NCBI GenBank assembly: GCA_951406725.2
Contig: OX597823.1
Coordinates: 27,962,001-28,026,000, forward strand
Reading direction: 5' to 3'
DNA from: Octopus vulgaris
Lineage: Eukaryota
Length of the DNA stretch: 64,000 nucleotides
Of this stretch, positions 20,516-57,518 are shown piece after piece. The stretch's first letter is position 1. Each line of letters starts with the position of its first letter. A model generated the notes under the pieces. That model was not told where the DNA came from. It searched no databases and saw nothing but the letters and a program-made list of their open reading frames with translations. The position numbers and the translations under genes are program-made.

Positions 20516-21130
20516 GGGCAGCGAGTTGGCAGAAACGTTAGTACGCCGAGCGAAATATTTAGCGATATTTCGTCTGCCGTGACGTTCTGAGTTCAAATTC
20601 CGCCGAGGTCGACTTTGCCTTTCATCCTTTCGGGGTCGATAAATTAAGTACCAATTACGCACTGGGGTCGATGTAATCGACTTAATCCCCTTGTCTGTCC
20701 TTGTTTGTCATCTCTGTGTTTAGCCCCTTGTGAGTAGTAAAGAAATAGGTATTTCGTCTGCCGTGACGTTCTGAGTTCAAATTCCGCCGAGGTCGACTTT
20801 GCCTTTCATTCTTTCGGGGTCGATAAATTAAGTACCAGTTACGCACTGGGGTCGATATATTCGATTTAATCCGTTTGTCTGCCCTTGTTTGTCCTCTCTG
20901 TGTTTAGCCCCTTGTGGGCAATAAAGAAATAAGAAACGCTAGCAAGCCGGGCGAAATACTTAGTGGTATTTCGTCTGTCTTTATGTTCTGAGTTCAAATT
21001 GCGCCGACGTCGACTTAACCTTTCATCCTTTTGGGGTCGGTAAATTAAACACCAGTTGCGTACTGAGGTCGATCTAATCGACTGGCCCCGTCCCCCAAAA
21101 TTTCGGGCCTTGTGCCTAGAGTAGAAAAGG
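20516..21130 (+). mobile_element. SINE family C tandem trimer
   Basis: GTTCTGAGTTCAAATT...CCTTTCATCCTTTCGGGGTCG-like core repeated three times (about 20584, 20768, 20985). Confidence 0.85.
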
Positions 21131-26815: not shown

Positions 26816-26935
26816 GCTTACGGCCATATCACGTTGAAAGCACCGGTTCTCGTCCGATCACCGAAGTTAAGCAACGTCTAGCCTAGTTAGTACTTAGATG
26901 GGTGACCGCTTGGGAAACCTAAGTGCTGTTAGCGT
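26816..26935 (+). rRNA. 5S rRNA gene copy, probably a pseudogene
   Basis: 120 nt GCTTACGGCCATATCACGTTGAAAGCACCGGTTCTCGTCCGATCACCGAAGTTAAGCAACG...AGTACTTAGATGGGTGACCGCTTGGGAAACCTAAGTGCTGTTAGCGT. Helix mismatches, AGTACTTAGATGG where 5S normally has AGTACTTGGATGG, and no oligo-T terminator. Confidence 0.92.
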
Positions 26936-33599: not shown

Positions 33600-35193
33600 A
33601 CATGCGCATTGTTTGTTTTTGATTTTGTCGACTACACAGTATAGTAGGGGCAGTAGGACACCGTCTGTGAAAAAACACCACCATGACGCAATTCACTCTG
33701 CCAGAAATTTGGAAACGATTTGCTGTCATTCATCATCATCATTGTTCGACCGTGGTCGAGACAATGAAATTTACCATGCTACGCCAGACTTCACGGTCCA
33801 TCATGGCATTACAGAGGTCCTGTTGTTGGATGCCCGTATCCCTGGAGATTACATCAGGGTAGGAGAGTGTGCGCCCCCTGGTATTGCGAGTAGATGGCTT
33901 CCAGAGGAGAAGAGTAGAAATTACTTCTTTTTCAGTTCTACAACAATGTCCAGCAAACTGGACTCTCCTACCTTTCACAAGAGATGACACAGGTGGTAGT
34001 TTCCCATATATTTGCATTTTGGTTGGATGGCGCTTCCACGAGAGATTTTGAGCTCTCATAAGGAGGCGAGTGTAGGTTCTATCCAACCGCCTCTCAAGCT
34101 TCTTTGATAACGTCCAGGTTTCTGAGCCATATAGTAGAATTGGTTCGACTGTGGCTTTGAATATTTCAAGTTTGAAGTCTCTACTTAGATTTGATAACCA
34201 GATCTTATGCATGTCATTACAGGCTGACCAGGCCATACCCTTTCTAGTTAGAAAGTCTTTTCCAGATGATGATATGTATGACCCAAGATATTTATAATCA
34301 GAAACCATATTTAAGGGCGCATTGTTGAGAGTATGGATGATGCAATCACTGTTGGACAGGCACTTGTTTATGTATTCAGTTTTGGCCTCATTGAGGTAAA
34401 GACCTACACAATTTGAGGCTTGTTCAAGAGATTGTAAAAGAGACTGGGCATTGGAGAGAGAATCACTGTACTGTTTGGCATTCGCACCAGAAATTCCGAT
34501 ACGAACATTTCAGAGTATTCGGGCGTCAAACAGAGGATAGTGCAATCTGAGAACATGTTCCGTGAGTGATAAAATCAAACATCCAGTCAGCATCATGGTG
34601 TTTGGAGTGATCACTAGTGATGGCGATGTTATGCCTCCATTCATCCTCCCACACTGCCTCACATTCAACACGGAAGCCTACATCAAGTATCTGGAGCAGG
34701 TAGTGCTGCCCTGGGAGAAGAGGGTGGCTGCTGGAAGACCCTCTGTCTAAGGACTCTGCACCTCAAGCAGGAGAATCCAGTCATTGCTGTCAGACAATTT
34801 CTGCGAACATATCACCCCTAACATCTGGCAATCTAAATCCCCCGCCTGCAACCCCTTTGATTATTATGTGTGAGGTGTAGTTGAGCGAGGGATCAGCAAG
34901 ACTACTTTTAATACCAAAGATGAACTGAAGGCAAGGATTATGGCAGCATTCACCAACTTAAACAAGGAGACCGTCCAGAAGAGTTGCAGGAGATTCCGAA
35001 GTCGTCTGGAAGCCGTGGTTGAAACCGATGGCGATTTTATTGAATAAATTTACTGTTTAGTATTTCAAGATATTTTAATGTAATTTTGGTAAATATATCT
35101 GTTAAAATGAGATGTCAGTGTTATTTTCGTAATTATTATTTTTGTTACTATAATGTTATTTTTGCGTAATTTAGACAATTCATTCACCGCGTC

Positions 35194-41330: not shown

Positions 41331-41710
41331 AAGCACTCCGTCGGTTACGACGACGAGGGTTCCGGTTGATCCGAATCAACGGAACAGCCTGCTCGTGAAA
41401 TTAGCGTGTAAGTGGCTGAGCACTCCACATACACGTGTACCCTTAACGTAGTTCTCGGGGATATTCAGCGTGACACAGAGAGTGACAAGGCCGGCCCTTT
41501 GAAATACAGGTACAACAGAAACAGGAAGTAAGAGTGAGAGAAAGTTGTGGTGAAAGAGTACAGCAGGGATCACCACCATCCCCTGCCGGAGCCTCGTGGA
41601 GCTTTTAGGTGTTTTCGCTCAATAAACACTCACAATGCCCGGTCTGGGAATCGAAACCGCGATCCTATGACCGCGAGGCCGCTGCCCTAACCACTGGGCC
41701 ATTGCGCCTC

Positions 41711-51142: not shown

Positions 51143-51808
51143 TGGAGGCGCAATGGCCCCGTGGTTAGGGCAGCGGACTCGCGGTCGTAGGATCGAGGCG
51201 TTGTGAGTGTTATCGAGCGAAAACACATAAAAAAAGCTCTACGAGGCTCTGGCAAGAGTTGGTGGCGATCCCTGCTGTGCTCTTTCGCCACAACTTTCTC
51301 TCACTCTTTCTTCTGTTGGCCTGCTCGCTTAGCCAGCGGGGTGGCGTCATTTGAAGGCTAAAACAATGCAAAGCGCATTGTGACCAGCGATGTGTAGCAA
51401 CATCTGATAGCCTGGCCGGTCACGGTGATCACGGTGACACCAAAGGATGAGGAAAGAAGCGAAATCGGCTTATACACGCACACACATATGTGAAGGCGCT
51501 TGTCTTAGTGGTTAGGGTGTTTGGCATGCGATCGTAGGGTCGTGAGTTCGATTCCCGGCGGCGCGTTGTGTCGTTGAGCATGACACTCTAATTCACATTG
51601 CTCCAGTCCACGCAGTTAGCCAAAATGTGCAGTACCTGCATCTCAAAGGGCCGGCCTCAACACATTCTTTGTGACGCTAAATCTCGCTGAAAAGTAAGTG
51701 AAGGGGTAAGTGTGTCTGTGGAGTGCTCAGCCACTTGCACGTTAATCTCACAAGCAAGCTGTTCCGTTCATCGGACTAACTGGAACCCTCGTCGTAAGCG
51801 ACGGAGTA

Positions 51809-51811
<3 letters not shown>
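51143..51811 (+). mobile_element. Two SINE family B-related chimeric copies
   Basis: 51143-51435 has a B head with a different tail. 51492-51811 has a D-like central domain with the B tail GGAACCCTCGTCGTAAGCGACGGAGT. Confidence 0.75.
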
Positions 51812-51843
<32 letters not shown>

Positions 51844-51848
<5 letters not shown>

Positions 51849-52149
51849 ATTGCAGTGTGGAAGGTGTTTATAAGCCATTTAAGAAACACACAAAACCGTT
51901 AGATTCACTTCAACATTTAAATTTAATTTGTCAAAATTCGTGCTGCACGATGTAGCACAAAGCTTTGTCAGTGAACAGGTCGCGGTCTCAAAGCGACGAA
52001 AATATTTTGACAAATTAAATTTAAATGTTGAAGTGAATCTAACGGTTTTGTGTGTTTCTTAAATGTCTTATAAACACCTTGCATGCTGCAATTATTTTTG
52101 TTCCAGCACGATCTCAGATCAAGTCACTCGCTATGCAAGTACATCTCCG

Positions 52150-52151
<2 letters not shown>
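51844..52151. mobile_element. Fold-back insert in (TA)n (about 90-bp arms) containing a variant hammerhead
   Basis: 51848-51937 is the reverse complement of 52004-52093. Unique tail to 52151. Confidence 0.8.
51964..52014 (+). ncRNA. Type I hammerhead with G3:C8 core swap
   Basis: UUUGUCA-GUGAACA-G-GUCGC-GGUCUCAAA-GCGAC-GAAA-AUA-UUU-UGACAAA. Confidence 0.7.
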
Positions 52152-52213
<62 letters not shown>

Positions 52214-55576: not shown

Positions 55577-55868
55577 AGTGTAGAAAAACAGTATTGGTTT
55601 TGTATCGAGGTGGTCACTTAATAGCACCTTCCTTTGTTTGAGGAGTAAACTAAGGAGCTCGTTATAACAGTCACGAGCGGACCACTGTACAGTGGACGTT
55701 AACCCTTAAATGCATGGATATTGGAAGAACACAAGAGAAAGGTGAACCAAAATGTAACGCGGTTGCCATGATATCAAAATTGGTGGAGTATCTGGAGTAC
55801 CCTTCAGGCATAAGAATATTGACGACTAGCAAGCGTTTGGGAGCCATACTGTGTGTATACCCTTAGAT

Positions 55869-56258
55869 GTGAAGGCGCAATGGCCCAGTGGTTAGGGCAG
55901 CGGACTCGCGGTCGTAGGATCGCGGTTTCGATTCCCAGACCGGGCGTTGTGAGTGTTTATTGAGCGAAAACACCTAAAGCTTCACAAGGCACCGGCAGGG
56001 ATGGTGGTGATCCCTGCTGTACTCTTTCACCACAACTTTCTCTCACTCTTACTTCCTGTTTCTGTTGTACCTGTATTTCAAGGGGCCGGCCTTGTCACTC
56101 TCTGTGTCACGCTGAATATCCCCGAGAACTACGTTAAGGGTACACGTGTCTGTGGAGTGCTCAGCCACTTACATGTTAATTTCACGAGCAGGCTGTTCCG
56201 TTGATCGGATCAATCGGAACCCTCGTCGTCGTTACCGACGGAGTGCTTCCTTCCTTCC
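55869..56258 (+). mobile_element. SINE family B, full length with 11-bp TSD
   Basis: TSD TACCCTTAGAT at 55858-55868 and 56259-56269. (TTCC)3 tail. Confidence 0.93.
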
Positions 56259-57131: not shown

Positions 57132-57518
57132 GGATAGAAGCACTCCGTTGGTTACGACGATGAGGGTTCCGGTTGATCCGATCAACGGAACAGCCTGCTT
57201 GTGAAATTAACGTATAAGTGGCTGAGCACTCCACAGACACGTGCACCCTTAACATAGTTCTCGGGGATATTCAGCGTGACACAGAGAGTGACAAGGCCGG
57301 CCCCTTGAAATACAGGTACAACAGAAACAGGAAGTAAGAGTGAGAGAAAGTTGTGGTGAAAGAGTACAGCAGGGATCACCACCATCCCCTGCCAGAGCCT
57401 CGTGGAGCTTTTAGGTGTTTTCGCTCAATAAACACTCACAACGCCCGGTCTGGGAATCGAAACCGCGATCCTATGACCGCGAGTCCGCTGCCCTAACCAC
57501 TGGGCCATTGCGCCTCCA
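57132..57518 (-). mobile_element. SINE family B, full length with 11-bp TSD
   Basis: TSD CTGTGTATGAT at 57121-57131 and 57519-57529. Confidence 0.93.

Follow-up and report, generated by a model that had tools for sequence, protein, structure and literature searches.

A 64,000-nucleotide stretch of the Octopus vulgaris genome (contig OX597823.1, positions 27,962,001 to 28,026,000; hereafter the window, in whose numbering all positions are given) carries on its forward strand, at 51964-52014, a minimal type I hammerhead ribozyme (HHR) motif in which G3 and C8 replace C3 and G8, as read from the sequence with its pairs checked. The motif lies in a truncated insertion of a Penelope-like element (PLE), in the part called the pseudo-long terminal repeat (pLTR), and belongs to a repeat family, named here family A, which is compared below with four related lineages (families B, C1 and C2, and the element L249). 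The features of the insertion and of the motif are the following.

51811-51843, no strand: (TA)n microsatellite, left flank and insertion target
51843-51937, minus strand: inverted 5' piece, a reverse copy of 52004-52098 without the ribozyme core, a typical PLE arrangement
51938-51947, minus strand: second short inverted piece at the junction, the reverse of the element's first bases; other copies have similar junctions
51949-52152, plus strand: main copy, the 5'-truncated pLTR of a Penelope-like element with a C-terminal endonuclease (family A)
51964-51970, plus strand: 5' strand of helix I, pairing with 52008-52014 in 7 Watson-Crick pairs
51971-51977, plus strand: core positions 3-9, G3 U4 G5 A6 A7 C8 A9, with G3 at 51971 and C8 at 51976
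51978, plus strand: extra G between A9 and G10.1, common to all five lineages compared
51979-51997, plus strand: helix II with a 9-nucleotide loop, 51979-51983 pairing with 51993-51997 (5 pairs, G10.1-C11.1 first)
51998-52001, plus strand: GAAA (G12-A15.1), read from the sequence
52001-52006, plus strand: palindromic helix III stretch AAUAUU, with U16.1 at 52006
52007, plus strand: U17, with the predicted cut between 52007 and 52008
52008-52014, plus strand: 3' strand of helix I; 52010 is G in a large subfamily, where the pairing is kept as U·G
52063-52152, plus strand: what is left of the beginning of the PLE reading frame, with its ATG at 52063 and, in the window copy, a frame shift
52099-52152, plus strand: "tail", the stretch between the two places at which family-A 3' ends cluster
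52152-52210, no strand: (TA)n microsatellite, right flank

Anatomy and folding of the window copy

The bases required in the rest of the core (U4, G5, A6, A9, G12, A13, A14, the A15.1-U16.1 pair and H17) are all present, correctly ordered with respect to helices I and II. By base identity at C3 and G8, the motif falls outside the type I hammerheads, G3 and C8 being found throughout its family. In the monomer, helix III would consist of 1-2 pairs closed by a short loop; it is unpaired in the predicted folds and appears feasible only between two motifs, for which the predicted self-duplex energy is -0.2 kcal/mol for the AAUAUU 6-mer and -2.0 kcal/mol for the 8-mer. On its anatomy the motif thus reads as a dimer-type PLE hammerhead, strict membership being lost on the C3/G8 identity and on the monomer helix III. 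A type III reading, with the long inverted repeat as helix III, was rejected, as no core follows the upstream hairpin. When the 51-mer is folded, helices I and II form (z = -2.5), and a descriptor that allows any base at positions 3, 7 and 8 matches once in the 64-kb window against 0.02 times per shuffled window (100 shuffles). No Rfam hammerhead model matches the window motif, at the gathering threshold or at E values up to 10.

The earlier note on this DNA, made from the letters alone, had described a 7-bp helix I, a 5-bp helix II, GAAA and a GUGAACA core, and sequence reading and pair checks bear all of these out. Its layout of the motif placed the elements rightly and overlooked the extra G at 51978. 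The palindrome that it gave for helix III is indeed a self-pairing stretch, but the proper palindrome is AAUAUU, the outer A and U of the 8-mer in the note being A14 and U17. The UUU triplet, to which the note gave weight, is not a special feature because U17 is common among the PLE minimal hammerheads in the supplement of PMC4209133.

What the note had missed is that the motif is part of a 95-nucleotide inverted repeat and of a repeat family with thousands of copies. The two arms (51843-51937 and 52004-52098) are 95% complementary, with 5 mismatches, and the upstream arm matches the family element in reverse; the main copy is 96% identical to another copy, L004, over 206 nucleotides. Folded alone, the main copy gives pair probabilities mostly of 0.7-0.84 for helix I and of 0.99 for helix II, and when it is folded together with the inverted arm the probability of helix I drops to 0, the energy of the hammerhead fold being 10.7 kcal/mol higher than the minimum. 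Since helix I and the cut site are sequestered by pairing with the inverted arm, the window copy is predicted to be unable to fold, and the arm, having no core, would supply no partner motif. The window copy is therefore most likely a truncated and inert insertion, as far as folding predictions tell.

The 3-8 pair in family A and its sister families

The genome searched comprises 2.8 Gb in 227 contigs. A pattern with seven core positions left free gave 1,279 matches, its reversed control giving 0, and the first 100 of these matches, counted by eye, include 98 with G3, 95 with C8 and 94 with both. A shorter scaffold found G3:C8 in 6,805 of 7,523 matches, together with 434 matches of G3 with a base other than C8 and 284 without G3; among the matches so counted are inverted arms, members of related families and a secondary composite repeat. 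When copies were chosen only by a 23-mer 3' of the cut, and thus blindly to the core, G3:C8 was present in 44 of the 49 readable cores. The question raised in the earlier note, whether G3 and C8 are both the family consensus, is answered positively by the scaffold matches and by the core-blind copies alike. In contigs of four runs under four other organism labels, no variant reaches 3% at 51971 or at 51976, and A52010G is found at 16-42% in the same four runs, with helix I preserved as U·G. One palindromic family-A insertion has been amplified inside a larger composite repeat with identical junctions (L061, L062, L033, L040-L042 and others), which occurs dozens of times on the contig labelled C1 alone and which, at L061 and L062, is found in inverted duplications of 2 kb that surround a 107-bp tandem repeat.

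Searches for cores without G3 or with G8 revealed families B, C1 and C2, each of which was then collected by the DNA 3' of its core; each set includes its own query and holds best matches only. The three families are homologous to family A also 3' of the motif. In family B, G3:C8 is present in 11 of 17 readable cores (13 of the 30 loci have no readable core), and the family differs from A in having C at N7, a six-pair helix II, a shorter palindrome and another loop II and loop III. Family C1, which is linked to its own reverse transcriptase (RT) and endonuclease (EN), shows C3:G8 in 22 of 30 cases. Family C2 (L365 and L384, for example) shows U3·G8 in 15 of 18 readable cores, 12 of its 30 loci being unreadable, and represents a second non-canonical core norm in the same genome, with U3·G8 and a tandem G·A in helix III. 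The median distance from the family majority is 4% in A, 13% in B, 5% in C1 and 17% in C2, so that B and C2 are the older families. A tree of 47 chosen copies, built without the core and rooted at the midpoint, splits A and B from C1 and C2 with 99/99 support.

Between single copies of the five lineages (A, B, C1, C2 and L249) the DNA 3' of the motif is 56-70% alike, and within the motif U4, G5, A6 and A9 do not vary, nor do the extra G, G10.1-C11.1, GAAA and U16.1. Positions 3 and 8 pair in 16 of 16 hand-chosen rows, as G-C in A and B, as C-G in C1 and L249, and as U-G in C2; the alignment represents at most five independent lineages, and only the 3-8 pair was counted from it. The helix pairs change on both sides, helix I having A-U in family A against G-C in C1, and helix II G-C against A-U. 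The helix III stretch is self-pairing in all five lineages with different letters, perfectly so in A, B and L249, with G·U in C1 and with the tandem G·A in C2. Since the core, the helices and the self-pairing helix III are kept while the flanks are 56-70% alike, selection on the fold can be argued. The earlier note had drawn such selection from the double change at one site, which by itself could not show it; the comparison across families does support it, with the distinction that selection is possible on the master elements but not on the window copy, whose arm buries helix I and the cut site.

The family-A motifs share many characters with the minimal type I hammerheads that PMC4209133 (Cervera and de la Pena 2014) describes in pLTRs of metazoan PLEs: a pLTR location in an element with RT and GIY-YIG domains, 5-6 pairs in helix II, a single nucleotide separating A9 from G10.1, the G10.1-C11.1 pair, a short palindromic helix III, the common U17, and the occurrence mostly as dispersed single motifs from truncated copies. 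They differ by G3:C8 in the place of C3:G8, the rows examined in that source containing no G3, though U3-A8 is given there for Schistosoma and U3·G8 in one row, from Saccoglossus. The natural U3-A8 variants (Perreault et al. 2011, PMC3088659) are, like G3:C8, a natural covariation of the 3-8 pair, but as described there they retain a pyrimidine at 3 and a purine at 8, whereas G3:C8 requires two transversions and reverses the order. The same two bases are exchanged in the engineered C3G/G8C hammerheads (PMC11167929; PMC8495972, citing Martick and Scott 2006), which in these accounts are laboratory mutants of C3:G8 ribozymes, whereas the swap is here natural and fixed in two families and thousands of copies. 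In the openly accessible literature no natural G3-C8 was found, only engineered cases (including PMC3884650), which is weak evidence of absence as most subscription papers lie outside it.

The parent element and other features of the window

The longer family-A copies extend upstream through about 700 nucleotides of microsatellite-rich DNA into a GIY-YIG remnant. Among 25 loci found with the endonuclease end (the query's own included), 13 have the motif on the same strand in the 1.5 kb of flanking DNA downstream, their cores being G3:C8 in nine cases, G3:G8 in two, G3:U8 in one and C3:C8 in one. Degenerate family-A fragments contain RT motifs, a linker and, at the C-terminal end, a GIY-YIG endonuclease; the linker, CX3CxxC, is a form of the CX2-5CxxC linker that precedes the endonuclease in Neptune and Nematis elements. 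Pfam searches on 5 fragments gave GIY-YIG (E 3e-4) and RVT_1 (E 0.016) in two of them, both below the curated cut-offs, and the protein fragments are 36-52% identical to six library proteins. The locus L243 holds an inverted 5' piece, the RT/EN part and a 3' pLTR together. The family-A copies end at two places about 55 nucleotides apart, and several of them have target duplications or (TA)n flanks. No intact family-A reading frame was found among the copies examined, and no copy with both a 5' and a 3' pLTR in tandem among 8 long loci.

A scan of metagenome contigs returned two loci, L249, with a pLTR hammerhead, and L250, with a match on the opposite strand only. L249 is a related PLE, about 47% identical to family A in RT/EN, in which a canonical C3:G8 minimal hammerhead lies right behind the reading frame and is followed by the start of the frame again, the layout with two pLTRs being visible in this relative. 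The peptides that follow the motif in families A and B resemble the N-terminus of L249, by which the start codon is placed at 52063, 56 nucleotides after the predicted cut. Because the L249-like N-terminus begins only there, the motif belongs to the leader and not to the coding sequence.

The parent would thus be, by its anatomy, a PLE with a C-terminal endonuclease of Neptune or Nematis type. As in the account of these PLEs by Craig et al. (2021, PMC8557442), a C-terminal GIY-YIG domain, the CX2-5CxxC linker (CX3CxxC in family A), inverted 5' pieces, a tail at one end and (TA)n targets are present, the tail being of about 55 nucleotides in family A against 30-40 bp. The animal non-LTR (long terminal repeat) retrozymes, as presented in PMC7229834 and bioRxiv 10.64898/2026.07.22.740005, are also short repeats that carry an HHR and come from, or are linked with, the pLTRs of PLEs; unlike them, the family-A motifs are dispersed truncations linked to a coding PLE and do not form head-to-tail arrays. 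No such array was seen, the window holding one copy and the genome dispersed matches, and the close same-strand neighbouring matches that were checked are duplications with their flanks. Several candidates for the parent or for a full-length element were rejected. A Naiad parent, suggested by the GIY-YIG and RT pieces near L002, L010 and L015, is ruled out, since the linked element has a C-terminal endonuclease; judging by their motifs, we take the pieces flanking these three loci to belong to another, Naiad-like PLE. Close pairs of matches are not full-length elements either: L061, L062 and L063 have no PLE frame, and the pairs L061/L062 and L089/L090 are duplications or the secondary composite repeat.

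Directly left of the insertion, at 51481-51810, lies a repeat resembling a short interspersed nuclear element (SINE), with a tRNA-like head in which ARAGORN finds no tRNA; parts of it recur at 41335-41513, 55867-56244 and 57142-57319. The window also contains a single 5S rRNA copy at 26816-26934 (102 bits with Rfam RF00001), which is probably dispersed or a pseudogene, two head-to-tail copies, 93% alike, of a 184-bp repeat at 20566-20931, and a 256-residue open frame on the minus strand at 33742-34509, which presumably resembles the RT end of a long interspersed nuclear element (LINE).

Cleavage, copy starts and competing explanations

Taken together, our data show a pLTR position just before the start codon, a family-wide swap, and a pair between positions 3 and 8 in each of the five lineages, and the comparison of sequences indicates that the G3:C8 variant of the PLE minimal hammerhead is real, family-wide and old. 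On balance we favor the reading of a minimal type I hammerhead in a PLE pLTR, with G3:C8 in two families, whose master transcripts would self-cleave slowly and only as a dimer or with the aid of the protein of the element. The earlier note had relied on the rescue of activity by double swaps; this is in print, but the rescue is partial only, single C3G or G8C changes abolishing hammerhead cleavage and the C3G/G8C double restoring a part of it (PMC11167929, PMC8495972). As reported in PMC11167929, such partial rescue is also obtained in the hammerhead of PAc, a PLE of Anolis, which lies around the start of the open reading frame like the family-A motif and needs its protein in order to cut. According to PMC4209133, the minimal hammerheads of PLEs show no activity as monomers and cleave weakly as dimers in vitro.

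The starts of copies were surveyed in 93 pieces, main copies as well as arms, which come from 99 of the first 100 of 4,072 matches picked on the sequence 3' of the cut. Among these pieces, 58 begin at helix I or ahead of it, 13 begin further in, and 22 are arms that belong to a single secondary composite repeat. Many copies start at the A or the G of the AG just before 51949-51950, about 15 nucleotides before helix I, and at N-A-G junctions that precede the first ATG-like triplet and do not continue upstream N is G in 22 of 44, some of the rows being arms or duplicates. We infer from these junctions that transcription probably starts about 15 nucleotides before helix I, the additional G being a copied cap G, in which case most short copies would derive from capped, uncut pLTR RNA. 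The longer copies have a branch-point-like, pyrimidine-rich stretch upstream of the same AG, which may alternatively be the end of an intron; the excess of G favors a transcription start instead. In contigs of runs that we guess to be RNA the repeat spans the cut site, though such contigs carry no information on ends, strand or level.

The mechanism proposed would have four steps: (i) G3:C8 descends from C3:G8; (ii) the swap persists because it is the 3-8 pair that brings the 2'-OH of residue 8 to the cut; (iii) two motifs pair through the AAUAUU palindrome and form helix III; and (iv) cleavage being weak, uncut RNA is the usual template for new insertions. That G3:C8 is the derived state is suggested by C3:G8 being the general one. 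A bolder version, which we put forward only tentatively, holds that a naturally evolved, catalytically active G3:C8 HHR has been fixed through two successive families with about 7,000 copies, beside C3:G8 and U3·G8 sisters, and that the swap together with the inserted G is a selected brake keeping most capped pLTR RNA uncut for insertion.

Several observations weigh against slow but real cleavage maintained by the 3-8 pair. The insertions bear no trace of cleavage, as only 1 of the 93 surveyed pieces starts at the predicted cut and this one is a helix I fold-back junction. The protein tree leaves the order of A, C1 and L249 unresolved, the five lineages amount to one origin of the swap and to no repeated origins, and family C2 has spread with a mere U·G wobble at positions 3 and 8. 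A G at the inserted position is reported to be strongly harmful in the hammerhead of chrysanthemum chlorotic mottle viroid (CChMVd; review PMC3705267), and the inserted G lies outside the consensus H for PLE hammerheads in PMC4209133, in which one listed row, from Nasonia, has G; yet the C3:G8 relatives share it. Within family A, 236 matches are G3:G8. At a control C of helix I about 13 of the first 100 of 129 changes listed are to G, from which about 17 would be expected against the 236, so the C8-to-G change is over ten times commoner. Some insertions carry G8 in both arms, and a broken 3-8 pair therefore does not block insertion. In a poorly resolved tree, 32 G3:G8 copies are spread over all backgrounds and subfamilies and form no clade; no G8 subfamily of family A was seen, and the idea of G3:G8 as a subfamily or an ancestral intermediate was dropped as unsupported.

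Several other explanations could be issued. The strongest, though we consider it unlikely, is that the fold is selected with negligible cleavage, as a structure of the 5' leader serving the binding of the PLE protein, RNA dimerisation or the control of translation, the 3-8 pair then being kept for shape only. The position of the motif between the likely transcription start and the ATG at 52063 is in agreement with such a role, as are the single piece starting at the cut, by fold-back, and the fact that in model hammerheads the rate is reduced by the swap, by the inserted G and by U17 alike. In the PAc system, uncut RNA is the insertion template, mutating the ribozyme does not affect in vitro insertion, and none of the reads ends at the cut of the canonical ribozyme, as presented in PMC11167929. 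This explanation accounts less well for G12, A13, A14, G5, A6 and the UH site, which are kept in five lineages beyond the obvious need of a binding surface, and for the weak cleavage in vitro of the dimeric PLE hammerheads of PMC4209133.

It is quite improbable, in our opinion, that the ribozyme died in one master and that G3 and C8 are neutral changes spread by a successful master, their pairing being coincidental. The single origin of the swap, the need to cross a non-pairing or wobble state, the frequent C8-to-G change with inserted G3:G8 copies, and the spread of Naiad PLEs that, in the account of PMC8557442, lack canonical hammerheads would all fit a dead master. However, A and B, which are 66% alike between single copies and 81% between majority lines, both keep G3:C8 together with every other core base, both helices and the palindromic helix III although the loops and N7 have changed; furthermore, the large helix I variant retains its pairing and the G8 copies do not group into a clade. 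A chance resemblance, or G3 and C8 arising from amino-acid changes in an overlapping reading frame, has a negligible probability: it could call on the failure of the Rfam models and on one frame open through the motif in some copies, but it is refuted by the homology with canonical hammerheads at the same place in C1 and L249, by the chance rate of 0.02 per window, by the true N-terminus, which matches that of L249 and starts 56 nucleotides after the cut, and by loop II lengths of 9, 8, 5 or 4 nucleotides according to subfamily, which break any shared reading frame.

The 3-8 pair belongs to the hammerhead active site, and C3 and G8 are treated as fixed in search descriptors; a G3:C8 family is therefore invisible to usual searches, as it was here to the Rfam models. 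The published PLE descriptors, as given in PMC4209133, use the CUGANGA or the U3-A8 form. If the G3:C8 hammerhead is active, the natural hammerhead core would be wider than assumed and the HHR counts in animal genomes would be too low. As to the role of the PLE hammerhead, the three core states on one scaffold, each belonging to a family that has spread, allow selection on cleavage rate to be tested against selection on the fold only; the G3:C8, C3:G8 and U3·G8 families would then form a ready natural series on what PLE hammerheads do.
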